Of a stretch of 64,000 nt of DNA, positions 1 through 64,000 are shown one piece after another. The position numbers were made by a program, and so were the translations under genes. A model generated the notes under the pieces. It was not told the DNA's origin, did no database searches, and was given only the letters and a program-made list of their open reading frames with translations. Numbering within the stretch: the stretch's first letter is position 1; the number at the start of each line of letters is the position of its first letter. The DNA is taken from NCBI GenBank assembly GCA_944320495.1, contig CALUHR010000013.1, forward strand, positions 224,001 to 288,000, read 5' to 3'. The stretch comes from Candidatus Methanomethylophilaceae archaeon. GTDB lineage: Archaea > Thermoplasmatota > Thermoplasmata > Methanomassiliicoccales > Methanomethylophilaceae.

Positions 1-839
1 ACCTCCTCCACCGCGAAGGAGGCGACGGACGAGGCGATCACAAGGGCCTCTGGCACATCGTAGCCGCGATACAGCGCGGCGTAGAACCCTGCGCGGTAGT
101 TGTCACCCGCACCCGTCACGTCGACGGCGCGCCTGGCCTTCACCAGCGGTATGCGGACAGTCTCGTCCCCGACCCTGGCGGTGCTCCCCGAGTCCCCGTC
201 CGTGCGGACCACGAGCGACGGTCCGGCGTCGAGCACGTCCCCGATGCCGAGATACCTCTGGATGGTGGCGGCCTCCAGCTCGTTGCAGAACAGGGCGTCG
301 GACATGGGCAGCGCCTCCCTGACGAGCCCCTCGTTCCAGACCCTGTGGACCTCCTGGGCGGGATCCAGCGAGATCGCCGGTCCTCCGCGCAGCTCACGCA
401 TCAGGGAGACGTAGTACGACGGCTGCCCGGTGCAGAAGTGGACGTGCCTGGACCTGGAGGCCATCCCGGTCAGACGGATCCCCAGGGAATCGGCGTTGCC
501 CTGAGGCCCCTGGTAGAAGAACACCCTGGTCACTAGGTCCTTGTCGTTGATGATCACGCAGGACGACGTCTCCTGCCCCACGGTGACGACCTCGTCCATG
601 ATCAGCCCCGAATCCCTCATGAGGTCTAGGTACGCGGCGGGCATGTCCGGCCCGATGAAGGCGCAAAGCGCCGTGGGGCAGCCGAGCCTGGCGGCCGCCA
701 CGGCTATGTTGGGCCCGGTGCCGCCGAGCGCGGTCTTCTTGGAGAGCGCGTCGGCGGTGATTCCGGGCGGGAGGAACGTGTCGATGCCGAAGATCGTATC
801 GATCGTGACGTGCCCGTACACCGACACGAAGGGGTCCAT
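1..839 (-). CDS. PfkB-family carbohydrate/nucleoside kinase (runs off the window; C-terminus missing)
   Basis: Translated by hand from ATG 839: MDPFVSVYGHVTIDTIFG...GGTGPNIAVAAARLG...DVTGAGDNYRAGF, which carries both PfkB signatures. The ATG overlaps the ahcY TGA. Absent from the ORF track. Confidence 0.88.
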   Translation of the reverse strand, partial: MDPFVSVYGHVTIDTIFGIDTFLPPGITADALSKKTALGGTGPNIAVAAARLGCPTALCAFIGPDMPAAYLDLMRDSGLIMDEVVTVGQETSSCVIINDKDLVTRVFFYQGPQGNADSLGIRLTGMASRSRHVHFCTGQPSYYVSLMRELRGGPAISLDPAQEVHRVWNEGLVREALPMSDALFCNELEAATIQRYLGIGDVLDAGPSLVVRTDGDSGSTARVGDETVRIPLVKARRAVDVTGAGDNYRAGFYAALYRGYDVPEALVIASSVASFAVEE

Positions 840-2077
840 CAGGTCCCCTCCTCCCATCCTCCGATGTAGGAGAGCTGCTCCTCCGTGAGGGCGTCGATCT
901 CGACGCCCATGGACTCCAGCTTGATCCTGGCTATCTCCTGGTCGATGGCCTCCGGGACGTTGTGGACGCCCTTGGCGAGACCTTTGTAGTTCTTGACCAT
1001 GTGGATGAGGCCCAGGGCCTGGGTGGAGAAGCTCATGTCCATGATCTCGGCGGGGTGTCCCTGGCCGGCGGCCAGGTTCATGAGCCTGCCCTCGGCGATG
1101 AGGTACAGCCTCCTGCCGTCGGCCATGCGGTACTCCTCCACGAAGTCCCTGACGCGCTCCTTGGAGACGCTCATGGCCTCCAGGGCGGTCTTGCTGATCT
1201 CGTTGTCGAAGTGGCCCACGTTGCCCATGACGCATCCGTCCTTGGCTACCTTGAGGGCCTCGGCGGAGACGACGTCCTTGCATCCGGTGACCGTGATGAT
1301 GATGTCCGCCACGGCCGCGGCCTTCACCATGGGCATGACCTCGAACCCGTCCATCTTGGCCTCGATCGCCTTGATGGGGTCGACCTCGGTGACGATGACC
1401 GACGCCCCGAGACCCTTGGCGCGCATGGCGACGCCCTTGCCGCACCAACCGTATCCGGCGACGACGAGCCTCTTCCCCGCGACGATCAGGTTGGTGGCGT
1501 TCATCCATCCGTCGAAGGCGGACTGGCCGGTCCCGTAGCGGTTGTCGAACATGAACTTCATCTTCGCGTCGTTCACGTCCAGCACGGGGAACTCGAGGAC
1601 ACCGTCGTTGGCCATGGCCCTGAGCCTCTGGACGCCGGTGGTGGTCTCCTCGTTCGCCGCCTTCACGTTGGGCAGCGCGTCCCTCCTGGAGGTGTGGACC
1701 ATCGAGATGAGGTCCGCCCCGTCGTCGATGATGAAGTCCGGATGCATATCCAGTACGGTGTTGAGGTTGGCGTAGTACTCCTCCTGGGTCTCCCACTTCT
1801 TGGCGTAGACGTTGAGGCCGTACTCCTCCCTCAGCGCCATGGCGACGGAGTCGTCGGTCGAGAGGGGGTTGCAGCTCGCGAGCCTGACCTCGGCCCCGGC
1901 GTCCGCCAGGGTGACGGCGAGCATTCCGGTCTTCGCCTCGGTGTGGAGGGCCATGCCGACCTTGATGCCGGCCAGGGGCTTCTCCTCGATGAAGCGCTTC
2001 CTGATCGCCATGAGCACGGGCATGTGGTCCGCGGCCCAGTGGAGCCTCAGGGATCCGATCTTCGTGAGGTCGTCCAT
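839..2077 (-). CDS. ahcY: Adenosylhomocysteinase
   Basis: Motifs SCNPLST, EETTTG, DNRYGTGQS, GYGWCGKG and GHPAEIMDMSF. Confidence 0.97.
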   Translation of the reverse strand: MDDLTKIGSLRLHWAADHMPVLMAIRKRFIEEKPLAGIKVGMALHTEAKTGMLAVTLADAGAEVRLASCNPLSTDDSVAMALREEYGLNVYAKKWETQEEYYANLNTVLDMHPDFIIDDGADLISMVHTSRRDALPNVKAANEETTTGVQRLRAMANDGVLEFPVLDVNDAKMKFMFDNRYGTGQSAFDGWMNATNLIVAGKRLVVAGYGWCGKGVAMRAKGLGASVIVTEVDPIKAIEAKMDGFEVMPMVKAAAVADIIITVTGCKDVVSAEALKVAKDGCVMGNVGHFDNEISKTALEAMSVSKERVRDFVEEYRMADGRRLYLIAEGRLMNLAAGQGHPAEIMDMSFSTQALGLIHMVKNYKGLAKGVHNVPEAIDQEIARIKLESMGVEIDALTEEQLSYIGGWEEGT

Positions 2078-2081
2078 GATA

Positions 2082-3619: not shown

Positions 3620-4400
3620 GACGGACCGGCAGGAAGACGAGGACCTTCGTGTCCTCCCTGTCGTCCCTTTTGACGATATCCGGGATTATCCCGGTGTTGC
3701 TCACCACCGTATGGAATATCTGCTCGAGCTGGGCGGTGCCGAAGCCCGAGCTCACGGTGACGATGAGCTTGCCGTAGGCCGGATCGGTGGGGAAGACCGT
3801 CGCGCCCATCGCGCGCTGGACCGCCTCCGCCGGATCGATGTCGTTGACGTAGGAGAAGGTGTAGGCAGGCTCCGGGAATGTGCTGAAGAACGGCCCGTCC
3901 ACAATCGCCGCCAGATTGTCCATGGACAGGGATATCGTGTGTCCTATGACGCGGAGGCCCGAATCGATCTTCACACCGCCGTTGATCTTCTCGAACATCC
4001 CCATGTCCATCAGGAAGATGCGATCGGCGGTGCCACGTATCGAATCCAAGGTCCCGATCGCCTTTCCACGGCGTTCCTTCTCGATCGGATGAGGAAGTCC
4101 GGCGACGGCAATGACCCTGCAACCGGACCGCCTGGCACATTCAGCCACATGAAGCAGCATCGCCGATCCCGACTCGCCTCCGAGCATCGCATAGACGAAC
4201 GCGACCCTGACGCCCGAGAGGGCGTTCCTTATGGCGTACTCCTCGCCGCGAGACATCGGCGTGCGGAAGTCCGGATTGCCGGCGGCGGCCTCGCGGGGAT
4301 TTATGCGGTACGTCGGTATGCGATCGAACCCCGTGCTCGCGATGATGCGGCATGCGGCACCCCCGCACGCGAAGAGGACCGCATCGTCCAAGTCTCTCAC
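3591..4400 (-). CDS. Degenerate FtsZ/tubulin-like protein
   Basis: FtsZ-like segment order: ACGGAAC (T1-like), MLGGESGS (in place of GGGTGSG), VAGLPHPIEKERRGKA...ADRIFLMD. Lies directly downstream of a CdrS-like RHH gene. Confidence 0.65.
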   Translation of the reverse strand: MRDLDDAVLFACGGAACRIIASTGFDRIPTYRINPREAAAGNPDFRTPMSRGEEYAIRNALSGVRVAFVYAMLGGESGSAMLLHVAECARRSGCRVIAVAGLPHPIEKERRGKAIGTLDSIRGTADRIFLMDMGMFEKINGGVKIDSGLRVIGHTISLSMDNLAAIVDGPFFSTFPEPAYTFSYVNDIDPAEAVQRAMGATVFPTDPAYGKLIVTVSSGFGTAQLEQIFHTVVSNTGIIPDIVKRDDREDTKVLVFLPVRLTSPRASRS

Positions 4401-4674
4401 CGACGCCCATCCTCTGGCTCAGGTACCTGTCGGCGGCGGCGCGGACCATGTCGTCCAGACTCCTGCCGTCCGGTGTCAGGTCGGAGATGTCGAGGACCTC
4501 CTGGACGTCGTACTCCGGGACCACGCCCTCGGTGATGCGCCCGTCGGCGTAGGAATCGAGGACCGAGCGTACCGCATCGTTGATGGAGCGGAACTCCCCG
4601 CGGGAGACGAGCGCCCTGTAGACGGCGACGGTGTCGGGGGAAAGCCTCAGAACGATCCTCTCGTCATCAGACAT
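4384..4674 (-). CDS. Ribbon-helix-helix protein, CdrS/CopG-like (ends at CGA 4386-4384)
   Basis: ERIVLRLS...LVSRGEFRSINDAVRSVL resembles archaeal CdrS, with a second RHH-like segment (SLDDMVRAAADRYL). The standard-code ORF runs to 4141, 260 nt into the ftsZ-like gene. Confidence 0.75.
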
Positions 4675-14717: not shown

Positions 14718-15665
14718 TCACTCCCACTCGATGGTCGCGGGAGGCTTGTTCGTGATGTCGTAGACGACACGGTTGACGGAATCCTTCATCGTGTTCGTGA
14801 TGCGGACCGAGATGGCGTCGAGCACGTCCAGCGGGATGCGGGCATAGGTGGCGGTCATGCCGTCGACGGAGGCGACGGCGCGGACGGCGATGGTCCTTCC
14901 GTACGCCCTCCTGTCGCCCTGCACGCCGACGGACCTGGACGGGAGGAGGACAGCGAAGTACTGCCACGGCATCTCCATCTTGCCGGCCTCGGCGGCCTTG
15001 CGGATCTCGTCCTCGACGATGTGGCAGGCCTCGCGGACGATCGCGATGCCCTCGGGTGTGACCTCACCGAGGCACCTGACTGCCAGTGCGGGGCCGGGGA
15101 AGGGCTGCCTCTCGGACGCCTTGACGCCGAGCAGTCTGGCAACATCCCTGACCTCGTCCTTGTAGAGGTCCCTGAGGGGCTCGACCAGCGTCATGCCCAT
15201 GTCCTTGGGGAGCCCGCCGACGTTGTGGTGGGACTTGATGGTGTCCCTGACACCGTCGCCGCTCTCGATCCAGTCGGGGGCGATGGTCCCCTGGACGAGG
15301 TACTCCGCGCCGAAGTCCCTGGCCTCCCTCTCGAAGACCCTGATGAACTTCTCGCCGATGATCTTCCTCTTCCTCTCGGGGTCGGAGACGCCCTTCAGGG
15401 CGTCGAAGAACTCCTGGCCGGAGGAGGCGATCCTGTAGTTGATGCCCATGTCCCTGAGCATCCCCTCGACCTCCTCGGTCTCCCCCTTCCTCATGAGGCC
15501 GTTGTCCACGTAGACGGCGAGCAGCCTGTCGCCGATGGCCTTGCTGGCCAGAGTGGCGGCGACCATGCTGTCGACGCCGCCGGAGCAGGCGATGATGGCC
15601 CTGCCCTGTATCCTGGACCTGAGGTCCTCGACGGTCTCCTCGATGAAGTCCTCGGCACCCAGCAT
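14718..15665 (-). CDS. guaAB: GMP synthase subunit B (archaeal type)
   Basis: [32 protein letters not shown] and KPPATIEWE motifs. Confidence 0.95.
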
Positions 15666-16131
15666 CCTGAACCACCTTCTCGGAATCGGCGACGACCTTG
15701 TCCGCCTGCTCCCTCCTGTACGCGACCAGCGCGTCCCTGACGGCCGCGTCGTTCACGGCGATGATCTCGCAGGCGAGGATCGCCGCGTTGTCGCCGCGGT
15801 CGAGGCCGACACAGGCGACCGGGATGCCCGGGGGCATCTGGACGATCGAGAGGATCGCGTCCAGGTTCATGGCCCCGCTGACGGGGACGCCGATGACGGG
15901 CTTGACTGTGAACGATGCTACGACTCCGGGGAGGGCCGCCGAGAGGCCCGCGATGGCGACGAAGGCGTCGGCGTCGCTGCCCTTGACGAGCTCCTCTACC
16001 CTGGCGGGGGTCCTGTGGGCGGATGCAACCGCGATGTCGAAGGCGACGCCCAGCTTCTTCAGGACGTTGATCGCCTTCTCCGCCACGGGCATGTCGCTCT
16101 TGCTACCCAGGATGATGGAGACCTTTGACAT
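15652..16131 (-). CDS. purE: N5-CAIR mutase / AIR carboxylase (ends at CGA 15654-15652)
   Basis: [20 protein letters not shown] and QMPPGIPVA motifs; about 160 codons up to the CGA. The standard-code ORF (to 15064) overlaps guaAB by about 600 nt. Confidence 0.93.
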
Positions 16132-16844: not shown

Positions 16845-17105
16845 ATGGATATTCTGGGTGTTGTCGAGGAAACGACCTGCGATGGCAGGATCATCATCCG
16901 CTGCGACGCCCTGCCAGACATCGGAGACTCGGTGTTCGCCAAGGGTGGGAGGCTGGGCACCGTCGGCAGGGTGTTCGGACCGGTCGACAGCCCATACGCA
17001 TCCGTGAACCCCGTCGGGGGCGCCACGGCCGCGAAGGGCACAAGGACGTCTTTCAAGGGGAGAAAGCACGATGCCAAAAGTAAGAGAGGAAACAGAAGAG
17101 ATCGA
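16845..17105 (+). CDS. gar1: H/ACA RNP subunit Gar1/Naf1 (ends at CGA 17103-17105)
   Basis: [18 protein letters not shown] motif and the conserved position upstream of tfb. The standard-code ORF ends at 17144. Confidence 0.85.
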
Positions 17106-18083: not shown

Positions 18084-18422
18084 ATGGAACAGCAGGACCA
18101 GAGACCCAGCAGACATGTCTGCCTCACACGCAGGGCGCCGCTCGGCATATCGTCGGACCCGGAGCTGGACATGCTCCAGGCCCTGGCCGACCCGGACGTG
18201 CTGACGATGGTACGCGGGCTGGCGAGAGAGGAGGCCAGGTCCCCGTTCCCCGACGGACTGTTCGGACTGGACTCGCCGAGGACCAACGCCGCGATCAGGA
18301 GGATGAGGGATGCGGGACTGATCTCCTCGCGCAGGGACGGCAACGATCACGTCTACTTCCTCAACGCCCCCAGGTTCCGCGACTTGGAGCACTTCATATC
18401 GGGACTGATCGCGAAGGACCGA
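18084..18422 (+). CDS. ArsR/winged-HTH family regulator (ends at CGA 18420-18422)
   Basis: LQALADPDVLTMV...AIRRMRDAGLISSRRDGNDHVYFLN. The standard-code ORF continues about 1.1 kb antisense to endA, to 19535. Confidence 0.75.
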
Positions 18423-19601: not shown

Positions 19602-20342
19602 ATGGTGAAGCAGACCGCTGGAAGGGATTCGCTCGGGGATTTCGCACCGAAGTTCGCCGAGCTGAACGACGATGTGCTGTTCGGGGAGGTGTGGTCCAGG
19701 GAGAACGGGCTGTCGCTGCGCGACAGGTCGCTGGTGACGGTCGTATCCCTGATGTCCCAGGGACTCACGGACTCGTCGTTCAGGTACCATCTGGAATCAG
19801 CGAGGAGGAACGGGATCACCAGGACGGAGATCGCCGAGATCCTCACGCATGCGGCGTTCTACGCCGGCTGGCCGAAGGCCTGGGCCGCGTTCAACATGGC
19901 CAAGGAGGTCTGGGCCGAGGAGCCGGCGGACGATGCCAGGGCAAGGCACCAGACAGAGATGGTCTTCCCGATCGGGGAGCTCAACGATTCGTATGCGCGG
20001 TACTTCACCGGAAGGAGCTACCTGGCGCCCGTGTCCACGTCCCAGATCGGGGTGTTCAACGTGACCTTCGAGCCGGGCTGCAGGAACAACTGGCACATAC
20101 ACCACGCGGAGACCGGCGGAGGGCAGATACTCATCTGCGTCGCGGGGAGGGGGCGCTACCAGGAATGGGGCGGCGAGATCCGCGAGCTGAATCCCGGGGA
20201 CGTCGTCAACATCCCCGCCAACGTGAAGCACTGGCACGGGGCGGCGCCGGACAGCTGGTTCTCCCATCTTGCGATAGAGGTCCCCGGAACGGGGACGTCG
20301 AACGAATGGTGCGAGCCCGTGGACGACTCGCAGTACCGCCGA
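19602..20342 (+). CDS. Carboxymuconolactone-decarboxylase-like plus cupin fusion protein
   Basis: FAPKFAELNDDVLFGEVWSR (CMD) and FEPGCRNNWHIH...HWHGA (cupin). First CGA at 20340; TGA end at 20351. Confidence 0.88.
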
Positions 20343-20470: not shown

Positions 20471-21139
20471 ATGGATGAGATCGACATGATGGAGGCGATC
20501 AGGGAGAGACACTCCGTCAGGAGGTACACGAACAGGAGGATCGAGGATCCCGAGAGGAGCCGGCTCCAGGAGGTTGTAGAAGCCTGCAACGCGCAGGGCG
20601 GCCTCAGGTTCCAGCTGTTCACCGACTCTCCGGGCGCCTTCGACGGCATCCTCTCCGGGGGGTTCAGGAACGTCGTGAACTACGTCGCCCTCGTCAAGAA
20701 GATCTCCGAGCCCGACGAGAAGGTCGGGTACTACGGAGAGGAGGTGGCACTCCGCGCACAGCAGCTGGGTCTGAGGACCTGCTGGGTCGGGCTCTCCTAC
20801 AGCAAGAGGAGGTGCAGGGCGGAGATCGCCGACGACGAGAAGCTGGTATGCTTGCTGGCCGTCGGGTACGGAGAGAACGATGGGACGGCCCACAGGAGCA
20901 GGCCCGCGGACCAGATCGGAAGATGCGAGGGGGATGCCCCGGAATGGTTCTCAAAGGGCATCGAGGCCGTGATGCTGGCGCCCTCGGCCATGAACAGGCA
21001 GAGGTTCAGATTCGTCCTCCAGGGGGACGGGCGCGTAAGAGCGGAGACCTCTGGGGGCGCCTACTCCGAGGTGGACCGGGGCATAGCGAAGCTGCACTTC
21101 GAGATCGGCGCCGGGACCGACAACTTCGAGTGGGCCCGA
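20471..21139 (+). CDS. Nitroreductase family protein (ends at CGA 21137-21139)
   Basis: AIRERHSVRRY, LAPSAMNRQ and LHFEIGAGTDNFEWA; followed by CGA CGA and a hairpin. The standard-code ORF runs to 22555, antisense to trpB2. Confidence 0.88.
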
Positions 21140-21193: not shown

Positions 21194-22519
21194 TCAGTCG
21201 TCGATCGACGAGGACTGCATGGTGCCCTCGAGATACTGGTCGTAGCCGTAGAGGTCGAGGAACCCGTGGCCGGAGAGGCAGAACACGATGGTCTTCTCCT
21301 CGCCGGTGGCCTTGCACTCCAGGGCCTTGTCGATGGCCGCCTTGATCGCATGGCAGGACTCTGGCGCTGCCACGATGCCCTCGGTCTTCGCGAAGAGAAC
21401 GCCGGCCTCGAACGTCTCGGTCTGGTCGTACGCCACCGCCGTCAGGAGGTTCTGGTCGTACGCGGCGGACACGAGCGGGGACATGCCGTGGTATCTGAGG
21501 CCTCCGGCGTGGATACTCTTGGGGATGAACTCGGACCCGAGGGTGTACATCATCAGAAGGGGCGTGACGCCGGCGGTGTCGCCGTAGTCGTACCTGAACT
21601 CCCCCTCGGTGAGCGAGGGCGCGGCCTTGGGCTCGACGGCGATGATCTCGGTCTCGCTCCTGCCCTTGATCTTCTCGTGCATCATGGGGAAGGTGAATCC
21701 GGCGAAGTTCGAACCGCCGCCGACACAGGCGATCATGTAGTCCGGGGTAATCTCGGCCTTCTGCATCTGCAGCATGGCCTCCTCCCCGATGACGGTCTGA
21801 TGCAGCATCACATGGTTCAGGACGCTGCCGAGGGCGTAGCACGTGCCCTCGTCCTTCATTGCGAGCTCGCAGGCCTCGGAGATTGCGATGCCCAGGGACC
21901 CTGTGGTGTCCGGATGCTCCTTGAGGATCTTCTTCCCGAACTCGGTGTACTCGGACGGGGAAGCGTAGACCTCGGCACCGTACATGTGCATCAGGGTCTT
22001 CCTGAAGGGCTTCTGGTTGTAGCTGCCCTTGACCATGAACACCGTGGTGTCTATGTCGAAGAGATTGGACACCATGGCGAGGGCTGTGCCCCACTGACCG
22101 GCGCCGGTCTCGGTGGTGAGTGTGTGGATGCCCGACTCCGCGTTGTAGTACGCCTGTGCGAGGGCTGTGTTGCCCTTGTGGCTGCCCAGGGGGCTCATGT
22201 CCTCCCTCTTGAAGTAGATCTTCGCGGGGGTCTTGAGGTACCTCTCGAGGCGGTAGGCCCTCTGGAGGGGCGACGGCCTGTTGAGGGCGACAAGGTTGTC
22301 CCTGACCTCCTCGGGAATGTCGATGTACCTCTCGGTGGAGGCCTCCTGCTGGATGATGGGCTTGCAGAAGATCGCCTCGAAGTCCTGCGGCTTGGCGGGC
22401 TCCTTCGTGACGGGATTGAGCGGGGGCTTGATCTCCGGGAGGTCCGCGGCGAGGTTGTACCAGCGCTTGGGGATCTCCTCGGGATCGAGTGTGATGCGAA
22501 CGTCCTTCGGTATTGCCAT
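21194..22519 (-). CDS. trpB2: TrpB-like PLP enzyme (tryptophan synthase beta, type 2)
   Basis: GSHKGNTA (PLP Lys), TETGAGQWG, GGGSNFAG, GGLRYHG and SGHG motifs; no trpA nearby. Confidence 0.93.
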   Translation of the reverse strand: MAIPKDVRITLDPEEIPKRWYNLAADLPEIKPPLNPVTKEPAKPQDFEAIFCKPIIQQEASTERYIDIPEEVRDNLVALNRPSPLQRAYRLERYLKTPAKIYFKREDMSPLGSHKGNTALAQAYYNAESGIHTLTTETGAGQWGTALAMVSNLFDIDTTVFMVKGSYNQKPFRKTLMHMYGAEVYASPSEYTEFGKKILKEHPDTTGSLGIAISEACELAMKDEGTCYALGSVLNHVMLHQTVIGEEAMLQMQKAEITPDYMIACVGGGSNFAGFTFPMMHEKIKGRSETEIIAVEPKAAPSLTEGEFRYDYGDTAGVTPLLMMYTLGSEFIPKSIHAGGLRYHGMSPLVSAAYDQNLLTAVAYDQTETFEAGVLFAKTEGIVAAPESCHAIKAAIDKALECKATGEEKTIVFCLSGHGFLDLYGYDQYLEGTMQSSSIDD

Positions 22520-25391: not shown

Positions 25392-26987
25392 TCGTTCGAC
25401 CCTAGCTACAACATCGAAATCGTCACTAACGCCCAGAGCCTCGAACAGCCTTGGCACTCTCCTGTCCCGCGACCCTCTGATCAATCCATTGACCGTAATC
25501 GTCGCCTTGTATGTCGAGGCCATGAGGAACGCCCTGGAGACGTCGACATCCTTCATACCGGCGGCGTCGAGAGTCCTCTGTATCTCCGAGTAGATCGTTA
25601 TCGCGATGAACTCGATGAACAGATGCGGTTCTGTGCGGACGCCCTTGCAGATATAACGCTTCAGCTGCCTGGAGCCACCATTGAACTGGGCTATCGCCCT
25701 GGAGATCGCGGTCCTCGCCACGCGCCCGGACACCACGTCATCCCATTCAGCCGAGCGCAGGACGACAAACGTCTTCCCCGCATCGGTCCTGAACTCAGAA
25801 ATCCTGCCGCGCCTTCTGATGAGACTCATGGTCCCATCCTCATCGATGACGTAGCGTAGGAACCGCTCGAACCGCCCTGCGACCTTCTCGAAGGCCTCCG
25901 CCGGATACTCGAACACCTTCCCCTCCAGACGGAATTCTATGTCAGAGAGGGCATCCCTCAGGGCCACGACCTCCTCCGCCCTCATACGCGGGTCGTAACA
26001 GAGGAACGATATGAGGCCCATAACCGCATCCCCGAACCTGGGATCTGTCTGTGGCACCAAGATCTGCCCTCCCGTGCCCTGCAAAAGCCCGACGACCCCC
26101 TCCTGAAGATAATACTCCCTCCCGGAATGCTCCTTCCTGAAGCATGGGGATTCCACGTCCCGGTAATCGGACTGCACCGCCCGGAACTGATCGGAATCTG
26201 CGGCGTACGGTATCGCGAAGTCCACATCGCCATCTATCAAGCCCGTGAGATCCAGAGTGGGACTGATCGCCGTGTCCGCGATGAACACACAGTCCGAGGT
26301 CTTGCGAATCGACTGCATGACCTCCACCAGCTCCGACGTATCACGGGAAATGTCACCCACGGGGCTGAACGCTATAGGCATCCCGTCCTCGGTCATTATG
26401 ATCAGGATGGAGACCTCGGTCGCGGGGTCCCTCCTCTCCCGGGCCTGTATGATGTCGTCAGAATCGATCGTCTGATGCGCATATGCGTAGAGCTTCCCGG
26501 AATGCATGGACCATCTGCGTCTGAAGAATGCGAACATCCTGTCAAGGTCGATGGAATTTACAATCCCGCGCACATCCGCGCTCCCGATGCGAGCATCGAG
26601 ACCCAGCAGGTATGGGATGCACGAAGAGTTGAGCACCAGATCGATCGAATCCGATGGTGTCGGCCTGATAGCCTGCGCCAGCGCCAGGGCGAGTATCCTG
26701 TCCGCATCCTTCCCGAACACTCCCTCAAGGTCCTCGCGAATGCCCAGGCGCTCGGCCACGGTAAACGCCAGAAGGGCATCCCCATAGTTGACCATCCTGG
26801 CCCCGTCCGGGGGCAGCTCGCGTGGAGGTACACGGGCGACCTTCTCATGTATCTCCCCCGTCTCCGGATCGACCACGCCCAGATACCGCTTGACCGAGAC
26901 GGGGTTCTTCCTCCCCGGCACGCGTTTGGACGTGGACGTGTATGCGTATGTCTTGCCGTTGCGGTTCTCGTACCTTATGGACGACAT
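25392..26987 (-). mobile_element. IS1634-like (IS4 superfamily) transposase homologue with a degenerate DDE motif (ends at CGA 25394-25392)
   Basis: N-terminus YAYTSTSKRVPGRKNP...YLGVVDPETG, central FIADT, and C-terminal HLFIEFIA. No terminal inverted repeats seen. The standard-code ORF runs to 24987, into pdaD. Start ATG 26987 or 26996. Confidence 0.65.
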
Positions 26988-27015
26988 GGCGACCATCCAT
27001 CCTCGGTCTGTGCGA

Positions 27016-39070: not shown

Positions 39071-39834
39071 CGGATCCGGCCGCGATCAGAGAGGGCATCA
39101 TCGCCTATTCGAGGGGACTCGGGGCGACGCTCGTCCGCATGTGCCCCACGGACAGATGGTCAGAGCATCCGATCCAGTCGGAGATGTTCCGTCCCAGGAG
39201 CATCTGGCCCTGGGCCGAGACGGCGATCGTCCTGGGCATCCCCCTGTTCGCTCCCATGGTCGCCACCACACCGTCCATGGTCTATCAGGAGCTGTACCAC
39301 ACGAGCAACCGCATACTGGACGACATGGGCTATCGCCTCTCGTCGCATCTGACCTCGGAGGGGTACCGCGCGATGTACTTCCCAAGGGACTGCTACTTCA
39401 GCGTCGAGGCACTGCTCGACCGTCCCGCTGCCGCGTTCTCCCATGTGCTGTCGGCGTACTACGCGGGCATGGGTACAATCGGGGACAGCCACAACCTCAT
39501 CACGAAGGAGTACGGACCGAGGGTCCGCATGGTCACCGTCCTGACGGACGCCATACCGGAGTGCGACGACATGCTCGATGAGGACCTCTGCATCCACTGC
39601 GGGAAGTGCCTGAGGGAGTGCCCGTCGAAGGCGTTCACCGACAAGGGAGAGGGCATCTACGACATGGACGCTCGCGCATGCACGGAGTACCACCTGGAGC
39701 TGAAGAGACAGCGTCACTGGCCCTGCGGGAGATGCATCGCCGTCTGCCCGGTGGGAGAGGACCTGAGGTCATATCGCGGATCGAAGATCGCCACCGACCA
39801 GGGGATCGGACATTGCAGAACGTACGGATCCCGA
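39067..39834 (+). CDS. Epoxyqueuosine reductase-like 4Fe-4S protein
   Basis: YGPRVRMVTVLTD, CIHCGKCLRECP and CGRCIAVCP motifs; ends TCC CGA TAA (TAA at 39835-39837). Confidence 0.78.
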
Positions 39835-43996: not shown

Positions 43997-44302
43997 TTAT
44001 TCATCCTCTGATTTGTATAAGTCAACTCCAATCGCTCTCTTCACCTTCTCACGGAGATCGCTCTGATCCCCTCCGACCGGCACGACGACGGGCTGGATCG
44101 AATCCATGACCCTGTGCCTGACGGCGAAAGAGAGGTTGTCCAGATCCTTCGCGTCCACTGCGAGGATACCGATGTTGGGCTGGGACATCGCCTCCAGCAT
44201 TTTTTCCTGGTAGTTGTCTTTCTCAGCAACGAAGACGCGCCTGATACCGGCGAGCCTGAAGCCGAGCACGAACTCATCGCTGCCTATTACTGCGATCTCC
44301 AT
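43997..44302 (-). CDS. atpF: A1Ao ATP synthase subunit F
   Basis: IAVIGSDEFVLGFRLAG and LREKVKRAIGVDL motifs. Confidence 0.95.
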   Translation of the reverse strand: MEIAVIGSDEFVLGFRLAGIRRVFVAEKDNYQEKMLEAMSQPNIGILAVDAKDLDNLSFAVRHRVMDSIQPVVVPVGGDQSDLREKVKRAIGVDLYKSEDE

Positions 44303-45357
44303 CGGATCACCAGCAACCCTTTGATGGTGTCTGCGTCCAGTCCGCTCTCCACTCCCCTCGAGATGGTCCTGATGTTGCTGACCTCGATCTCCTTGTGGAT
44401 CATGTAGTCGATGATGGGGACCACCGACAGGGGGTACATGTGGGAGAACTTGTTCGCGGCGGCGATCTCGTACTTCTTCATCTCGGTGACGACCTCCCTG
44501 ATGCTCACCTTGTCGGATTCCACGAGTCCCTTGATGGAGTCGTAGAATTCGAGGCGGGACAGGTCGGAGGACGCGGCGGCGATGGTCTCCGCGTTGGCGA
44601 GCTGAGTCGCGTAGCGGGTGTCGATCTGCCTTCCCCCGGGGATGATGTACTTCATCACGACCTCGCCGTGGATCCCCTCCGCCTTGAGCTTGAGGATCGT
44701 CTCGAGGTTCTTGATGTCGATCTCCGTCCTGACGTAGTCCTGGAACATCCTGGTCGGCCTGGAGGTGGGGTTGATGCTCTTGACCAGCCTCACGTAGTGG
44801 GCCTTGTCCAGGTAGTCCTCGATCTCTCCCAGGTTCCCGGTCGACTTGTAGGTCGAGATGACGTCCTGGGGGATCGTGATGTGTTCCATCTTGTCGTAGT
44901 TCGCGATTATGTCTTCCACACTGTCGAGCGAGAGCAGCTTCTCCAGAGACTCGGAGTCCAGACTTCCGGCGGGGACCAGGTCCTCCCTGATTCCCTCGGG
45001 GTCAAGTCCGTACGACTTGCCGCGCAGGATGACCTTCAGGTTCCAGATGTCCCACTTCTCGAGGTACGCCTGGACCATGCCCTTGAGCTCTCCCTGGGAG
45101 GCCTGCAGGATGCTGCTGAACACCTTCGCCATGTTGGTGTAGGTGGCGTGCTCCACGAGGTCCATCCCCTCCAGCCTGCCGGCGAGGTCGGTCATCTCCT
45201 TCTGATAACCGGACTCGCTGATGTAGCGGGAGATCTCCGGGACGCTCATGAGCAGCATCTTGTTGTAGTCCTCGTCCTTGAGGAGAAGGGCCTTCTTGGC
45301 CTTCACCCTGGACACGGCATACGCGTAGTTGCCTGCCCTTCCGCTGCGGTTGAACAT
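44302..45357 (-). CDS. atpC: A1Ao ATP synthase subunit C (ends at CGA 44304-44302, overlapping the atpF ATG)
   Basis: YAYAVSRVKAKK, WDIWNLKVILR and EVSNIR...LLVI. The standard-code ORF ends at 44287. Confidence 0.93.
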
Positions 45358-49254: not shown

Positions 49255-50112
49255 GTGAGCGGGGACAACAAGGGATTCATTCTGACGATTCTGGTCATAG
49301 TCATCGTGTTTGTCGGCGGATACGCCGCACTCGTAGTGTACACAGGATCCAGCGTCCCCTTCAGCTCCGTCGTCTCCGAGAGCATGCAGCACGACAACGA
49401 CAGGTCCCAGATCGGCGTCATAGACACCGGGGACATAGTCATCGTGCGCGACCCGGACAAGACCGACATCCACAGCTACGTGGAGAGCGTCGCCGACGGC
49501 TACGAGTCCTTCGGGAACTACGGATCCGTGATAATCTACAACCGCGTGGGACAGAACCCCGTCATCCACAGAGCGATGCTGTGGCTGGACTACAACGGGG
49601 ACGGAACGTGGTCAGCTCCCGACCTCGCGAACATCCAAGGAAGCTGGTACTATCAATACGAGACCGTGAACAGCGAGACCGGCGAGGTCACCGTCACGAG
49701 GGGCACTGACTACATGAACATACGCGGGGAGCTCCACTTCCTTGACCTGGACGGAAAGACCCCGTACATCGACCTGGATTCCCTCGCAGTCAAGAAGAGC
49801 GGATTCCTCACCATGGGCGACAACCACGAGACCAACCCGAACTTCGACCAGCAGTCCGGGATAGTCGACCATCTGATCTCCCATGAGGACATCAAATCGG
49901 TGGCGGTCATCGAGATTCCATGGATGGGATCCCTGAAGCTGCTCATCAACGGAAGCGACAATCTGGCACATGTGCCGAACAGCGTCCCGTCCCTGATAAT
50001 GGAGATAGTCCTCGTGTTCTCGGCGCTCATGCTCCTCGATTTCCTCACCGTGTTCAGATACAACAGGAAGAGACAGAGGAAGATCGAGCTGGTCGAGAAG
50101 TGGAAGGGACGA
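49255..50112 (+). CDS. Signal peptidase I (S26, archaeal Ser-His type; ends at CGA 50110-50112)
   Basis: N-terminal TM, VVSESMQH, VIHRA, TMGDN and a C-terminal TM. Lies within ORF-track frame 48706..50226. Confidence 0.85.
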
Positions 50113-51788: not shown

Positions 51789-52076
51789 ATGTCTGCACAC
51801 AGGTATGCCGCCTTGGGAATGGCAGTCGTATTGGTCGTTCTCACTCTGGTCCTGTTCTCGGACGAATCCATGCAGGAGGATCCGGACATGACCGGGATAG
51901 TGAGTGATATCAAAGAGGGAACGAACGGATATACCTTCATTCTGAACACATACGACGGAAGTGTGAGGTGCTTCTTCCGCGAGAGGCCTGCAGATCTCTC
52001 GTACTGCGGCGTCTCTGGGACCTTCTCCGACGACGGGTCCATACTCTTCGTGGAGAGATTGGTCCATTTGGATCGA
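51789..52076 (+). CDS. Small membrane-anchored protein, possibly OB-fold
   Basis: N-terminal TM followed by GIVSDIKE...GYTF...VSGTFSDDGSILFV. First CGA at 52074; TAA end at 52094. Confidence 0.6.
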
Positions 52077-54852: not shown

Positions 54853-56100
54853 GTGGATTACTCCGTTATGAAGAGCCTCCAGTCCGTCTTCGGAGAGATA
54901 GATGCCAGCATGGAAGAGATAATCCAGACAGCCGTCGAGTTGGTCGGATATCCCGCATTGGCACCGATCAACGGAGGGACTGGCGAGGGGGCCAAGGCGG
55001 ATTACATCGTCTCCAAGCTCAGGGGGTTCGACAGCGTCGAGCGTATCGAGTTCCCCGATGTTACTGATCCTTCTGTGATGAGGCCCAACATAATCGCCAG
55101 GAAGAATGGCAAGGGCAAGGGGACCTTGTGGATAGTGTCCCATATGGATGTGGTCCCCACTGGTGACCCGGAGTTGTGGGACACTCCTCCGTTCGAAGGA
55201 GTCTACAAAGACGGTCGCATCTACGGCAGGGGGACCGAGGATAACGGACAGTCCGTCGTGGCCTCGATGTTCGCCGCCAAGCCGTTCCTGGATGAGGAGT
55301 TCGATGGGATGTCGCTTGCCTTAGCCTATGTGGCGGACGAGGAGACCTCCAGCGTCCTCGGCATACAGAGCCTCCTGGAGAAGGGTCTGTTCTCGGAGGA
55401 CGATGCGATAATGGTCCCGGACTGGGGATCCCCAGGAGGAACCATGATAGGCCTGGCGGAGAAGTCCGTCCTATGGCTGAGGTTCGTGATCGAGGGGAGG
55501 ACCACCCACGGTTCCACTCCCGAGCTCGGTGTCAACGCGTACCGCGTCTCCACTCTCCTGTTGATGGACCTGATGGAATCCCTCCCGGAGAAGTTCGGCG
55601 AGAGGGATGACCGCTTCCTGAATGGCGTGTCCACGTTCGAACCGACCAAGAGGCCAGCCACTGTCGACAACGTGAACACGATACCCGGCCACGACGAGTT
55701 CTGCATGGACATCCGCCTCCTCCCTGAATACGACCCCGATGATGTGCTGCGCGAGGCCGAGGCCATCGCGAGATGCTATGCGAGGGACACGGGCGCCGAG
55801 ATCCGTGTGGAGGTCATCCAGAAGGCCGTAGCGGGAAGACCGTCGCCAGATGACAGGGAGGAGTTCACCGCCCTGGCGGAATCCGTCGAGGAGGTAATCG
55901 GAGTGAGACCGAGAGGTGTCGGGATGAGCGGCGGCACATGTGCCAACTTCTTCAGGCTCAAGGGACTGGACGCGTATGTGTGGCAGTCGGAGGGAGGGAC
56001 CCTTCATGCGCCCAACGAATACGTGACGGTGGACCATCTGCTGACCGATGCGAAGGTGTACGCCTCGCTTATCCGCAGGATGTGCGTCACTCGTCGCCGA
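54853..56100 (+). CDS. M20 (ArgE/DapE-like) metallopeptidase
   Basis: SHMDVVP, GRGTEDNG, DEE and TLHAPNE motifs. First CGA at 56098; the standard ORF ends at 56136. Confidence 0.9.
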
Positions 56101-58070: not shown

Positions 58071-59300
58071 TCGGAAAAGCCTCTGTCTGCCCGCCTCCTC
58101 CGATGCGAATCCGAAATCGGCCATCTTCCTGCCTATGAGGAACACGGCGGCGAACTCGGGGACCTCCGTCTCCCCCTCCAGGGAGAAATGCTCCCCCTTC
58201 ATGTCCAGCTTCGCGGGCCTCCTCATCGTGATCTTCACAGGGTCGTCGGAGTAAGCGTCAGGCACTGCCATCTGCAGGGGGTCGAAATCCGTGAGCTGGT
58301 CCCTGGTGATGGGGGTCACGCGGAGCCCGCTCTTGCCGTGGACGGACCCGGGGAGGCGTATCAGCCTCTTGATGTCCGCCGTGACCGGCTCGTCCACCTC
58401 GCCCGAGAGTCTCGGTGCCATGTCCTCGGCCATGATCTTCACGAGGATGTTCTGGGTGGACGTGGACAGCATGGCCATGGTGTTCCTCTCGAACAGCCTG
58501 GTCCTGGCGCCCTTCAGCTCCTCCTGGGCCTTGTAGACGGTCTTGATGTCGCTGCCCTTGATGCTGGGGTACTCGCGTTTGAGCTCCTTCCCGTCCCCGT
58601 CGCAGAAGTCGTTGACGACGTCCATGAGGCCGTGGCGCATTCTCAGCCTCCATCCTCCCGCATCCGCGGGAGGGATCAGCCTGTCCTTGGCGACGTTGGT
58701 GCGCATGCCTGACCCCGTGACGACCTTGGACGTGGCGACCCTGTTGTAAGGGAAGACCCAGTCGATGTTGAGGCCGGACCCGGTGATGTAGTCCACGAGC
58801 TCGCGCCTCTCGTGCGTCCCTAGCTCCATGACGTCCGGCGTGCGGACGTGGGCGTGGTACCCCCTTCCGCCGGAGAACGTGATGTGGACCTGCTCCTCCG
58901 AGAATCCCAGGTCCCCGAGCAGGAAGGAGTCGACGAGGTTCATCATCTCCGAGCGGATCTGCCTGAGCATCTCCGCATAGGTCATGTTCGCGGCGCCCTC
59001 CAGGTGGTCGGCGTCCAGGTCGAAGATGAGCTCCGCCCCGAGCCACTCCTTCTCGTCCATGGTGGGGGCGTCCGGCTTGCGGTAGTATGACGTGGAGTAG
59101 TAGCTGTGCGCGGGGACGTTCCCCTGCATGTACCGGCGCAGCTCTTCGGGGCTGCTGAACGATAGGTGCCTCTGGACGTAGTTCCTGTCGAAGAACATGA
59201 AGCCGAACTCCCTGCGGGCGAACCTGTCTGGCACAATGGGACCGTCCGTCCGGTAGTACTTCTTGAACGCCTTGAGCATGAAGCGGGAGTTCGGGTCCAT
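58071..59300 (-). CDS. priS: DNA primase small (catalytic) subunit (ends at CGA 58073-58071)
   Basis: RREFGF, LIFDLDADHL, FSGGRGYH and DEPVTADIKRLIRLPGSVHGK motifs. ATG 59300. The standard-code ORF runs to 57729, across rpl18a. Confidence 0.94.
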
Positions 59301-59395
59301 CGCCACGAGGACGGGGAGCGCGTATATCCATTTTCTGGGGAGCGTACGAAGGAACCTCCGAGATGCCTTTATCCGGTGACGGCTTACGAGGCCCG

Positions 59396-60232
59396 ATGAG
59401 CGAGAGCGTCCCAGTCTACGACAACCACATCCACATGTCCCCCTCCGGGAGGAACGTCGAGGCCCTGAAGGAGTACCAGGCCGCCGGCGGGACGGGGCTG
59501 ACGCTGGTGACGTTGCCCTACCCCGAGGTCCGCATCCGCGAGGGCGCGGACTTCGAGAGGTCGTATCAAATAACGTACGGTCTGGCACAGCGCGCCAGGG
59601 AGGAGACGGACCTGGAGATCAACATCGCCGTGGGGCCGTATCCGATTCTCCTGATATCCCTCGCCGAGGCCTACGGCCTGGAGAGGGCGGAGGAGATCAT
59701 GATCGAGGGGATGGAGGCTGCCGCGAGGGACGTGGCCGAGGGGCGCGCCGTCGCCCTCGGCGAGATAGGGAGGCCCCACTTCCCCGTGTCCGAGGAGATA
59801 TGGGACGCGTCCAACAGGGTCCTGCTCCGCGGCATGTAGCTCGCCCGCGAGGTAGACTGCCCCGTCATCATCCACTGCGAGTCCGAGGCCGACACCGACC
59901 GCTCCCTGGCGGAGCTGGCCGACCGCGCAGGTCTGGACAGGGGCAGGGTCGTGAAGCACTCGTCCCCGCCGTGGGTGACCCCTGAGGAGACGCACGGGGT
60001 GATGCCGTCGATACCCGCCTCCAAGACCAACACCAGGGAGGCCATCGGGAAGGGCACCGACCGCTTCATGATAGAGACCGACTACATCGACGACCCTTCC
60101 AAGCCGGGCGCGATCATGTCGGTGAACACAGTCCCCAAACGGGTCAGGGCATGGCTCGCCAACGGCGAGGTGTCCGTGGAGAGCATCCACAGGATCTGCG
60201 GGGACATTCCGAACTCACTTTACAGGAGATGA
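59396..60232 (+). CDS. TatD-related hydrolase with an in-frame amber codon at 59837-59839
   Basis: DNHIH, ALGEIGRPHF, IIHCE and FMIETDYIDDP..PG motifs lie on both sides of the TAG in one frame (ORF-track pieces 59363..59839 and 59951..60232). Confidence 0.85.
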
Positions 60233-62094: not shown

Positions 62095-63366
62095 ATGGTC
62101 ATCAGATACATGCCAAGGACTGCCGATGCGGAGCTGAACCTCGATATGGAGGCAATGGGCGCGGTGCTGATAACTGGTCCTAAATGGTGTGGTAAGACGA
62201 CGACGGCCATGCAGGTCGCCAAGAGCGTGGTCAATGTCGACGATCTCATCATGGACGTTCGGACCAGCGGGATCGAGGAGATAGCTCCAGAGTCGCTTCT
62301 CAGGGGGGAGAGGCCTCATCTCATCGATGAATGGCAGCTCGCTCCCAAGGTGTGGGACCTCGTGAGGAGGGAGGTCGATTCTTCGGGTGAGACGGGGGCG
62401 TTCATACTCACGGGGTCCACGGCGACAGATTTCCGCAAGGTCGTCCATTCAGGTACCGGACGCATAGGGCGTCTTCACATGCGCACCATGAGCCTGTACG
62501 AGAGCGGCGACTCATCTGGGGACGTCAGTCTCGGCTCGCTGTTCCGGACGGGTGACGAAGGCATATCCGGTTATTCCGACTGCGATGCGGAATGCATAGC
62601 GAGGCTGCTGACCCGTGGGGGTTGGCCAGCGGCTATCGGCAAATCGGAGGCGGCGGCCCAGAGGATCGTGGAGGCGTACTGTGAGTCCATGATAGAGGGC
62701 GACGTCAGGTGGCCGGACGGGCACAGGCACAGCCCCGAGAAGATGAGGGCTGTCCTGTCATCGTTGGCGAGGAACAGTGCAACGTCCGCATCACGCTCGA
62801 AGATCCTGGAGGATGTGGAGGGCCACGGGGTCAGGATGCACGAGAACACCTTGGACAACTATATCCGTGATCTGAAGAAGACGTTCGTGATAGAGAACCT
62901 GGATGCCTGGTGCCCGAAGCTCCGTTCCAAGACGTCGGTCAACAGCTCTCCCACGAGACATCTCACGGACCCGGCCATAGCAGCCTGGATGCTGGACGCG
63001 CATCCGGAGGACCTGCTCTCGGACCTCGAGACGTTCGGTCTCCTGTTCGAGTCCATGGCGGTACGCGACCTGAGGTCCTACGCCCAAGCCATAGGGGGAA
63101 AGGTCCATCATTACAGGGACTCCGAGGGCCTGGAGTCCGACACTATAATCCATCTGAACAACGGCAGGTGGGCGGCAGTGGAGATCAAGCTCGGCTCGGA
63201 GGCCGGCATAGAGTCCGGTGCGAAGAGCCTCAGGTCCCTCGAGAGGAAGGTCGATGGGGCGTACCGTAACAAGCTGGCCTTCAAGGCGATAGTGACGGCG
63301 ACCAAGGCGGCCTATACCCGCGACGACGGCATCCACGTCGTTCCGTTGGCATGCCTCAGGCCGTGA
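62095..63366 (+). CDS. AAA+ ATP-binding protein with DUF4143 (COG1373-like)
   Basis: GPKWCGKTT, LIDEWQ, FILTGS, LFESMAVRDLR and a C-terminal ESD...EIKLG nuclease-like motif. Confidence 0.9.
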   Translation: MVIRYMPRTADAELNLDMEAMGAVLITGPKWCGKTTTAMQVAKSVVNVDDLIMDVRTSGIEEIAPESLLRGERPHLIDEWQLAPKVWDLVRREVDSSGETGAFILTGSTATDFRKVVHSGTGRIGRLHMRTMSLYESGDSSGDVSLGSLFRTGDEGISGYSDCDAECIARLLTRGGWPAAIGKSEAAAQRIVEAYCESMIEGDVRWPDGHRHSPEKMRAVLSSLARNSATSASRSKILEDVEGHGVRMHENTLDNYIRDLKKTFVIENLDAWCPKLRSKTSVNSSPTRHLTDPAIAAWMLDAHPEDLLSDLETFGLLFESMAVRDLRSYAQAIGGKVHHYRDSEGLESDTIIHLNNGRWAAVEIKLGSEAGIESGAKSLRSLERKVDGAYRNKLAFKAIVTATKAAYTRDDGIHVVPLACLRP

Positions 63367-63369
63367 GCG

Positions 63370-64000
63370 TCACTTCACGGGCTCCCACTTGGCGAGCTCG
63401 TTGACCTTGGACAGGGTCGATCCGCGCTCGATCTCCTCGCGGGTCCTGTTCTCCCTCTCGTGGACGTCTAGCGCGCGGTTCGCGACCTCGACGGCCATCT
63501 CCTTGGGGATGACGATGATGCCGCTCTCGTCGCCGACGATCCAGTCGCCGGTGCGGACCCTCTGTCCTCCCACGATGATCTCGATACCGATGCCGCCGTA
63601 GCCCTTCGGCTCCCCGGCGCAAGGCGCGACGGTGCGCGAGAATGCGGGGAACCCGAGGTCCCTGATGTCGTCGATGTCCCTGACGGCGCCGTCGATGACC
63701 ACGCCGCGGACGCCCATGACCATCGCCGAGTGGGCGGCGAGCTCGCCCCAGACGGCTACGGGCGCCCCTCCGACGTCGATGACGATCACGTCCCCGTCCT
63801 TCGCCCTGTCGATGGCCTCCACGGGCTTCGCCCAGTCGCCGTTGGCCGTCTGGACGGTGAGCGCCCTGCCGACCATCTTCTGCTTATGTTTGAGGGACTG
63901 TGGGACTATGCCGAACATGACGCCCTGCTTGTGGAAGGCGTCGGAGATGTTGCAGGTGGAGACCCTCGAGAAGGCCTCGAACAGGTCCTCTTCGGAATAT
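63370..64000 (-). CDS. RraA/HMG-aldolase-like domain, probably the C-terminal half of an HPS-RraA fusion (5' end outside the window)
   Basis: STCNISDA, GRALTV, AVWGEL, IDGAVRD and GDWIVGDESG motifs; the frame stays open to the window end. Confidence 0.82.
   Translation of the reverse strand, partial: YSEEDLFEAFSRVSTCNISDAFHKQGVMFGIVPQSLKHKQKMVGRALTVQTANGDWAKPVEAIDRAKDGDVIVIDVGGAPVAVWGELAAHSAMVMGVRGVVIDGAVRDIDDIRDLGFPAFSRTVAPCAGEPKGYGGIGIEIIVGGQRVRTGDWIVGDESGIIVIPKEMAVEVANRALDVHERENRTREEIERGSTLSKVNELAKWEPVK

Follow-up and report, generated by a model that had tools for sequence, protein, structure and literature searches.

The DNA described here is a window of 64,000 nucleotides (nt) from the genome of a Methanomethylophilaceae member that carries genes for growth on methylamines (genome G000, contig C13:224001-288000; coordinates without a contig number are positions within the window). 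The organism probably departs from the standard genetic code at two codons: TAG would encode pyrrolysine, and CGA would be a terminator read by a single archaeal release factor, aRF1. The genome is 1.77 Mb in 14 contigs (approximately 62% G+C, 90.6% complete), and the window stretch is present in gut metagenomes of 10 studies, with the source mostly recorded as chicken or bird gut. An earlier note on this DNA had stated that genes of the window end in TGA, a few TAA or CGA, that none terminates with TAG and that the only in-frame TAG is internal. With CGA included as a stop, 72 gene calls lie in or touch the window, and their ends (49 TGA, 17 CGA, 5 TAA and 1 TAG) agree with this description. 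The lone called TAG end (59837-59839, + strand) is not a true end: the frame continues for 130 codons to a TGA at 60230-60232. The chance of finding 0 TAG ends in 72 genes is approximately 5e-4, assuming a TAG rate of about 10% as in two relatives that still stop at TAG (12/95 and 8/84 genes). The note had also raised the prospect of a double reassignment in one organism. As a sense reading of TAG and a terminator role of CGA are both supported in G000, both changes do occur in one organism.

Genes were called with a purpose-written gene finder that scores frames by codon log-odds, contrasting in-frame usage with usage in the other five frames, is trained iteratively on long open reading frames (ORFs), places the start at the score maximum and picks non-overlapping frames greedily. 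Counts are given for all gene calls, with score-thresholded sets used where stated. Gene calling under the standard code gave a coding density of only 0.79-0.83 and frame switches without any stop codon, and was replaced by models that include CGA among the stops. Adding CGA to the stop set raised the coding density from 0.829 to 0.873 and produced 1695 genes, which end in TGA (1200), CGA (418), TAA (55) or TAG (22). In high-scoring standard-code ORFs, in-frame CGA is concentrated at the extremes and is almost missing mid-gene (371, 158, 53, 27, 7, 6, 12, 25, 59 and 251 by gene-length tenths). The corresponding counts for CGG are 394, 214, 111, 79, 73, 51, 63, 77, 94 and 217, such that deciles 4-6 hold 7, 6 and 12 CGA codons versus 73, 51 and 63 CGG codons, with overall frequencies of 2.0 (CGA) and 2.8 (CGG) per 1000 codons. 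Because the CGA trinucleotide is frequent in the genome (27.6 per 1000), this avoidance is specific to the reading frame.

The sequence that follows CGA ends behaves like that which follows the usual stops. The mean score of the 30 codons past the end is -30.0 for CGA (8/372 above +5), -29.0 for TGA (53/1122) and -27.8 for TAA (2/48). When seven control codons (CGG, CGT, AGA, CTA, TCA, CCA and TGT) were treated as stops, the downstream means were -0.8 to +6.5, 57-72% of cases stayed coding downstream and the density fell. The median distance to the following standard in-frame stop is 25 codons for CGA ends (at least 30 codons in 47% of cases) and 28 codons for TGA ends (48%). No enrichment of back-up stops behind CGA ends was found in this genome-wide comparison with TGA, and because the distances resemble those after TGA, CGA ends are not propped up by such stops. 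Only 14 of the extensions past the 418 CGA ends score above +5. Of five candidate genes with an internal CGA, three are pairs of adjacent genes in the same frame (SIS/HAD, two FMN reductases and CfbC/CfbD), and the remaining two are an ankyrin gene and a gene without family match. Among the high-scoring extensions examined, CGA lies inside a single matched protein only in aRF1 and in one flavodoxin. At the level of gene structure, CGA is a real gene terminator, as the earlier note had proposed from the window alone, and it ends approximately 25% of the genes.

The 17 CGA-ended window genes were translated to the next standard stop and scanned against NCBIfam. In eight of them, the matched profile stops shortly before CGA. 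PurE (15652-16131, - strand; CGA at 15652-15654, codon 160) matches TIGR01162 over residues 4-153 (profile positions 1-155 of 156); its open frame runs to 355 codons, with a standard stop 196 codons on, and there is a 13-nt overlap with the start of the next gene. The 61-codon gene for a 4-oxalocrotonate tautomerase, DmpI (27016-27201, - strand; CGA at 27016-27018, codon 62), matches NF041920 from end to end (residues 1-59, profile 1-59 of 59) in a frame that would otherwise be open for 118 codons. A1 ATP synthase subunit C, AhaC (44302-45357, - strand; CGA at 44302-44304, codon 352), matches NF002268 over residues 3-351 (profile 3-346 of 346), and its CGA overlaps the start of the next gene as CGATG. 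The DNA primase small subunit PriS (58071-59306, - strand; CGA at 58071-58073, codon 412; standard stop 114 codons on) matches NF001639 over residues 11-397 (profile 9-387 of 391). The same relationship is seen for a CbiR-like phosphodiesterase (35028-35786, - strand; CGA at 35028-35030, codon 253; NF041277, residues 43-248, profile 49-248 of 249), an M20 metallo-hydrolase (54853-56100, + strand; CGA at 56098-56100, codon 416; NF010589, residues 10-407, profile 3-406 of 409) and an IS1634-family transposase (25392-26996, - strand; CGA at 25392-25394, codon 535; NF033559, residues 186-503, profile 158-456 of 483). The eighth is an ArsR-type helix-turn-helix (HTH) regulator (18084-18422, + strand; CGA at 18420-18422; NF033788, residues 29-101, profile 3-76 of 77), whose next standard stop is 371 codons on, through a convergent gene. 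No NCBIfam match was found past CGA in the translated extensions of the 17 genes, two of which have very short extensions and five of which have no match. In two further genes, the coding frame itself changes near the CGA. The 222-codon gene at 20471-21139 (+ strand; CGA at 21137-21139) has its next standard stop 472 codons downstream, in a frame that runs antisense to the gene at 21194-22519, and its frame scores switch near 21050. In the 203-codon gene at 33405-34016 (+ strand; CGA at 34014-34016, then TACG and the ATG of the next gene at 34021), the coding frame switches at approximately 33950, and under the standard code the ORF stays open to 35078 (standard stop 354 codons on).

These results bear on whether the CGA ends could be artefacts, either systematic T-to-C errors of sequencing or assembly, such as might arise at modified bases, or ordinary arginine codons followed by long C-terminal tails. 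Most CGA sites were judged from the assembly rather than from raw reads, and this assembly is in 14 contigs and 90.6% complete. Artefact is nevertheless extremely improbable. The supposed tails are up to 472 codons long, run through other genes and score as non-coding, and the family profiles end at CGA. The pattern recurs in separate assemblies (G018, G013 and G004; loci L108, L109, L118, L135, L167 and L181), and in-frame CGA is also missing in complete one-contig genomes. Gene-end CGA has a biased context (T at +4 in 55% versus 29% for TGA ends; C at -1 in 47%), and these are biases only; no fixed methylation-like motif was found around CGA stops, with T at +4 in just over half of them.

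Comparison with relatives places CGA where orthologues have their ends. Portions of 100-330 kb were sampled from each of 13 other genomes, and best-hit pairs were formed by assigning each subject gene its top-scoring G000 query. Genes ending with CGA in G000 have a TGA at the same or a nearby end in 27 (G013), 31 (G015), 19 (G004) and 11 (G008) cases and a CGA in 15 (G013) and 9 (G004), and the pairs that end elsewhere are a minority (2-7 per genome). Anchoring the stop-codon census on orthologues in this manner, as the note had advised, thus shows CGA ends coinciding with relatives' ends that are mostly TGA. The gene neighbouring aRF1 was compared at 110 loci, 80 of which gave a match; it ends with TGA at 64, CGA at 12, TAA at 3 and TAG at 1, with the CGA cases coming from several separate assemblies.

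As a single transition separates each CGA stop from TGA and the orthologues mostly have TGA, the same pattern could in principle arise by C-to-U editing of CGA to UGA in the mRNA, with the code itself unchanged. Plant mitochondria edit CGA codons in this way, and such editing was the only subject of the literature found on a CGA stop codon. RNA data from one site make this explanation very doubtful. At the AhaC stop (44302-44304), contigs from metatranscriptome runs X15, X16 and X17 (two studies) all read CGA, with 0 differences over 359-413 nt. In these runs, contig depth is high on the ATPase operon and drops to approximately 0 within a few kb, in contrast to the even depth of a DNA run; because depth follows the operon, the contigs represent RNA rather than contaminating DNA, and the AhaC transcript therefore carries CGA at this position. 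This check covers a single CGA stop, and contigs conceal minor variants. Editing would also leave unexplained both the purge of CGA from coding sequence in genera whose genes rarely end with it and a conserved CGA at an arginine position of aRF1. The RNA contigs of the three runs all stop at exactly 43997, an ATPase gene boundary, where the DNA run continues; this shared end could be due to strain variation downstream or to an RNA processing site.

The second change concerns TAG. The only in-frame TAG of the window (59837-59839) is codon 148 of a 278-codon TatD-family hydrolase gene (59396-60232, + strand) that ends with TGA. When read through, the product matches PF01026 (TatD_DNase) over residues 9-276 (profile 2-252 of 253) in a single stretch spanning the TAG (...GGC ATG TAG CTC GCC...), and the in-frame extension past TAG scores +59.2. 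This TAG is read as sense, presumably as pyrrolysine. Elsewhere in the genome, TAG is likewise not a normal gene end. With TAG read as sense, 23 of the 1679 genes contain it in frame, at 27 positions in total (0.053 per 1000 codons). Coding sequence flanks 16 of these on both sides; the next stop is no more than 15 codons away for 3, another 4 are ambiguous, and the final 4 lie close to a start, probably upstream of the true one. Of the 22 genes said to end at TAG in the CGA-stop model, 17 are well scoring, and coding continues in frame past 13 of these; the 30 codons that follow score -2.4 on average, compared with -29.0 past TGA. Read-through gives two full-length dimethylamine methyltransferases (MtbB; TIGR02368 positions 1-466) and two full-length monomethylamine methyltransferases (MtmB; PF05369 positions 1-450), as well as an SF1 helicase, an aldo/keto reductase with a C-terminal 4Fe-4S domain, an IS1634 transposase and the TatD protein of the window. 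Profile matches span the TAG in all four methyltransferases, TatD, the helicase and the reductase. No trimethylamine methyltransferase was found among the TAG-containing genes of this approximately 90% complete genome. Out-of-frame overlaps caused by the 22 read-throughs never exceed 60 nt (largest 53 nt). Two giant repeat-rich proteins of surface type (C9:24771-35198, 3475 codons; C3:62673-69578, 2301 codons) have one in-frame TAG each.

The genes for pyrrolysine synthesis and use are clustered on contig C9. PylS (260.8 bits against a cut-off of 178), PylC (302 bits) and PylD (181.7 bits) are all above curated cut-offs, and directly upstream of pylS is a candidate pylT, a tRNA(CUA) that was detected only at a relaxed ARAGORN threshold and was not detected by an Rfam scan of G000. 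This tRNA-Pyl(CUA), charged by PylS, would read TAG as pyrrolysine; TAG itself has been purged from gene ends, so that termination does not depend on it. Reading of TAG as either pyrrolysine or stop has reportedly been argued for Methanosarcina. In G000, such ambiguity, with pyrrolysine inserted when Pyl-tRNA is available and termination otherwise, is possible but unlikely. It would suit the 3 genes in which TAG is close to the next stop and the 4 ambiguous ones, and maintained ambiguity in pyrrolysine-using methanogens is reportedly argued for in a PNAS 2025 paper (PMC12626013). Just 27 in-frame TAGs are left, however, 16 of them in genes that need read-through for full length; these include housekeeping-type genes unrelated to methylamine use, and no read-through produces a large out-of-frame overlap. 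The proposal of the note that TAG is fully or largely sense can thus be put as essentially sense. TAG is a sense codon in G000 in the manner of the published Genetic Code 34, in which all TAG codons are read as pyrrolysine and TAG is recoded genome-wide (Kivenson et al., bioRxiv 10.1101/2024.09.30.615893), and because the pattern is the same, this half of the finding is not new. Shared features are pylS, pylC, pylD and the candidate pylT, very rare TAGs that are mostly internal with homology on both sides, and the lack of large out-of-frame overlaps; that paper names genera of the same family (Methanomethylophilus, Methanogranum and Methanoplasma). Its text gives only TGA and TAA as stops and mentions CGA 0 times, whereas CGA ends approximately 25% of genes here, and the stop set would therefore be TGA, CGA and TAA.

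The sampled relatives differ in how they use the two codons. In G030 (another family), G049, G048, G065 and G042, CGA is an ordinary, evenly spread sense codon (0.8-3.7 per 1000). TAG ends 12/95 genes in G049, 8/84 in G048 and 5/151 in G030, and 1/91 and 1/92 in G065 and G042. CGA stands at 0.00-0.11 per 1000 in representatives of four other genera (G045, G046, G051 and G080) and, within the genus of G000, in two complete genomes (G008 and G015). The few CGAs that remain in these CGA-poor genomes are at or beside gene ends, some of them without a nearby standard stop; the extension of one G015 gene, for example, consists of 139 non-coding codons that run into the next gene. CGA is a frequent stop in G004 (19/210 genes), G013 (32/308) and G000 (418/1695). 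Loss of CGA from coding sequence is seen only in TAG-poor lineages, with CGA-poor G045 ambiguous in its TAG status (TAG at 5/106 ends, none continuing). CGA sense loss is thus nested in TAG-poor lineages and frequent CGA stops are nested in CGA loss, which amounts to few independent events. This nesting fits the suggestion in the note that the gain of CGA as a stop is linked to TAG, and a causal link is plausible. The genomes that stop at TAG (G048, G049 and G030) are all CGA-sense, but TAG-poor G042 and G065 keep CGA as sense, so co-occurrence of the two traits is nested rather than one-to-one.

The single aRF1 gene of G000 (C2:85933-87165, - strand) encodes a protein with intact NIKS, YxCxxxF (Y-R-C-D-S-T-F) and GGQ motifs, and no aRF1 paralogue was found in this genome. 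The arginine at codon 78 is conserved, and its codon is CGA in 19 of 20 readable genes of the genus, among them those of G008 and G015, where CGA is almost missing otherwise; none of the 7 genes from other families has CGA at this position. Across 79 loci of the family, exactly one in-frame CGA is present in aRF1 at 68, nearly always within codons 9-123 (codon 78 at 44 loci, 25 at 20, 123 at 5, 11 at 4 and 50 at 2). The CGA has therefore shifted position while one copy stays, for which chance is not sufficient at the measured CGA frequencies. Its context (T at -1 in 59/85; C, G and T at +4 in 49, 26 and 9) is the reverse of that of gene-end CGA. Bacterial RF2 (prfB) autoregulates through an in-frame UGA, and the single conserved CGA suggests an analogous autoregulation of aRF1. 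In both cases, one early copy of a codon at which the factor itself would terminate is conserved in the factor's gene; RF2, to which aRF1 is unrelated, escapes by a +1 frameshift, whereas here the frame continues and read-through as arginine at a conserved arginine position is proposed. In such a feedback sensor, plentiful aRF1 would end its own synthesis at the CGA, and scarce aRF1 would allow the codon to be read through as arginine. The aRF1 of G000 and the 100%-identical protein of G018 (L107) read RGR-S-TELIS in a loop that presumably corresponds to the GTS motif of eRF1, and all other aRF1 sequences examined (L007-L036 and L107-L186) have G in place of S (R/K/H-G-TELIS). G000 also has the highest share of CGA stops among the sampled genomes.

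A homologous release factor is known to act on CGA. Yeast eRF1 decodes CGA as a stop at a low level, and UGA-biased mutants do so to a greater extent (Wada and Ito 2018, PMC7379694); substitutions L123F, L123R and L123Y, at the residue between Y and C of YxCxxxF, raise CGA decoding. In yeast, as proposed here, the factor (eRF1/eRF3) competes with tRNA-Arg, although in yeast this is a low-level error or rescue on a sense codon and not, as it would be in G000, the normal meaning of the codon. The archaeal protein has Y-R-C-D-S at the motif containing yeast L123. An R at this site is not sufficient for CGA termination, because relatives in which CGA is sense carry it too.

A tRNA(UCG) is present in G000 (C13:413317-413390, + strand; 55.7 bits against the Rfam tRNA model). 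Loss of tRNA-Arg(UCG) was rejected as the cause of the change, since the tRNA is present in genomes with CGA stops; a simple scheme in which the tRNA is lost and the codon freed therefore fails, termination would have to beat a cognate tRNA, and the presence of the tRNA points to a competition won by the release factor. All 12 tRNA(UCG) genes found in the genus (L095-L106) have a mismatched 31-39 pair (A-A, C-A or U-C), which leaves a 4-bp anticodon stem. tRNAs with a short anticodon stem have reportedly been linked to stop-codon reassignment in a trypanosomatid, and the tRNA(UCG) of this genus resembles these.

The proposed model for the origin of the CGA stop is as follows. CGA, no longer a normal arginine codon, sits where orthologues have TGA and would be read by aRF1. 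In the most likely mechanism, the single aRF1 would accept both UGA and CGA (YGA) in the A site of the ribosome, where it would outcompete a weakened tRNA-Arg(UCG). The factor may have started to act on CGA in a TAG-poor ancestor, after which CGA would have been purged from coding sequence, a stage at which several genera and two complete genomes of this genus would still be. T-to-C changes would then have converted TGA stops to CGA in one part of the genus. It is about evenly balanced whether the whole of this account applies, namely a clade-wide CGA stop read by aRF1 that arose after the assignment of TAG to pyrrolysine as a UGA-drifting aRF1 accepted CGA, with autoregulation of the factor and read-through by a tRNA-Arg(UCG) with a 4-bp anticodon stem.

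Several observations weigh against termination by aRF1 or against a complete change of the code. Of 25 genomes of the genus searched (G000 among them), 12 have a tRNA(UCG), including every one with frequent CGA stops, and a tRNA(UCG) with a normal anticodon stem is present in CGA-free G080 and G051 (two other genera). Synthesis of aRF1 requires that the CGA within its gene be decoded, yet two queries, by which an intron-containing copy could be missed, matched no tRNA(UCG) in the complete genomes G008 and G015. The note had suggested a remodelled aRF1; this part of its proposal was not supported as put, as there is a single gene and no alignment column separates 10 CGA-lost from 10 CGA-sense genomes. 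The flavodoxin gene mentioned above (C8:55331-55840, + strand; locus L204) has CGA at codon 119, inside a PF12682 match (residues 26-167 of 169), and represents either another case of read-through or a gene that is truncated. For the TAG half, pylB is not above its cut-off in G000 (best 66 bits; genome 90.6% complete), and TAG is close to the functional end in three to seven genes, such that occasional termination at TAG may take place. The gene finder is home-made and crude for short genes, and its low-scoring calls are unreliable. The evidence is entirely computational and consists of DNA patterns and one RNA site.

Some of these points would also suit a scheme in which CGA is unassigned or poorly decoded and stalled ribosomes are rescued, by aPelota/ABCE1 with peptidyl-tRNA hydrolase or by a slow, non-specific action of aRF1. 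CGA is virtually gone from coding sequence in six sampled genomes that lack frequent CGA stops, neither query matched a tRNA(UCG) in G008 and G015, the tRNA(UCG) of the genus is mismatched at pair 31-39, and no aRF1 residue follows the trait. Stalling is nonetheless rather improbable. A quarter of all genes, including purE, AhaC and PriS, would need the rescue pathway, and G000, G013 and G004, in which CGA ends are common, retain tRNA(UCG), so no simple stall would occur. The context bias at +4 is like that of stop codons, and the one CGA conserved in the gene for aRF1 suggests that this factor reads the codon. Termination by aRF1 remains the favoured explanation.

Sense-to-stop reassignments occur in organelle codes, such as those of green-algal and thraustochytrid mitochondria, and to our knowledge none is known outside organelles. 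If the full account given above is true, the CGA case would be the first in a cellular, non-organelle genome. As in the organelle codes, the sense codon is gone from coding positions and turns up at gene ends. Those genomes are tiny, whereas here a 1.8-Mb archaeal genome of free-living type is involved, with approximately 420 genes affected and a cognate-looking tRNA kept. The nearest report found concerns two Njordarchaeales assemblies in which CGA is missing from conserved domains and for which the possibility of a stop is raised and left untested (Melnykov 2026, bioRxiv 10.64898/2026.04.02.715157). That case shares with the present one an archaeal lineage whose conserved domains lack CGA, and differs in that it belongs to a different phylum, is coupled to a CGG-to-Trp change and has no tRNA(UCG) found; gene ends, orthologues, RNA and a phylogenetic series are examined here. 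CGA as an archaeal stop appears to be new, with no report found in the literature searched.

If CGA is a stop, two codons have changed in one archaeon, one of them by a type of change known only from organelles. The series of genera (CGA as sense, absent, a rare stop and 25% of ends) would then be a living record of the stages of a reassignment, and intermediate stages in relatives, which include named and possibly cultured members, make codon capture and an ambiguous intermediate testable against each other. Standard gene callers would fuse or over-extend approximately a quarter of the genes and split those containing TAG, and such miscalled genes corrupt both the protein databases and the metabolic reconstructions of gut methanogens that are common in animals and, seemingly, in humans. 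In genetic code expansion, PylRS/tRNA-Pyl pairs from this family serve as tools; a CGA-reading aRF1 and a CGA read-through tRNA of natural origin, if real, would be of interest to the same field.

Mobile elements of the host are also written in the altered code, which bears on genetic isolation. The IS1634-family transposase of the window ends with CGA and a second one (C6:79766-81499, - strand) carries TAG in frame; a host with the standard code would probably mistranslate such elements. Gene ends further differ in their overlaps with downstream starts. CGATG stop-start overlaps are found at 13% of CGA ends (for example, at 44300-44304 in the window) and TGATG at 3% of TGA ends, and the ATGA overlap present at 20% of TGA ends has no CGA counterpart.

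The remaining seven CGA-ended genes of the window are as follows. On the - strand, a 96-codon gene without family match (4384-4674; CGA at 4384-4386) has its next standard stop 81 codons on. The others are on the + strand. A Gar1-like gene (16845-17105; putative CGA end at 17103-17105) has a weak profile match to residue 90 and a standard stop 13 codons on. A standard stop follows more closely in a 246-codon gene (19602-20342; putative CGA end at 20340-20342, TGA 3 codons later), in which the profile match reaches residue 247, in an HTH regulator gene (29130-29639; CGA at 29637-29639, TGA 2 codons later, next gene starting at 29642) and in a gene for a 4Fe-4S protein (39067-39834; CGA at 39832-39834, TAA directly after). 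The 85-codon call at 51819-52076 (CGA at 52074-52076) is low-scoring (17.6) and uncertain, and a 285-codon gene without family match is found at 49255-50112 (CGA at 50110-50112).

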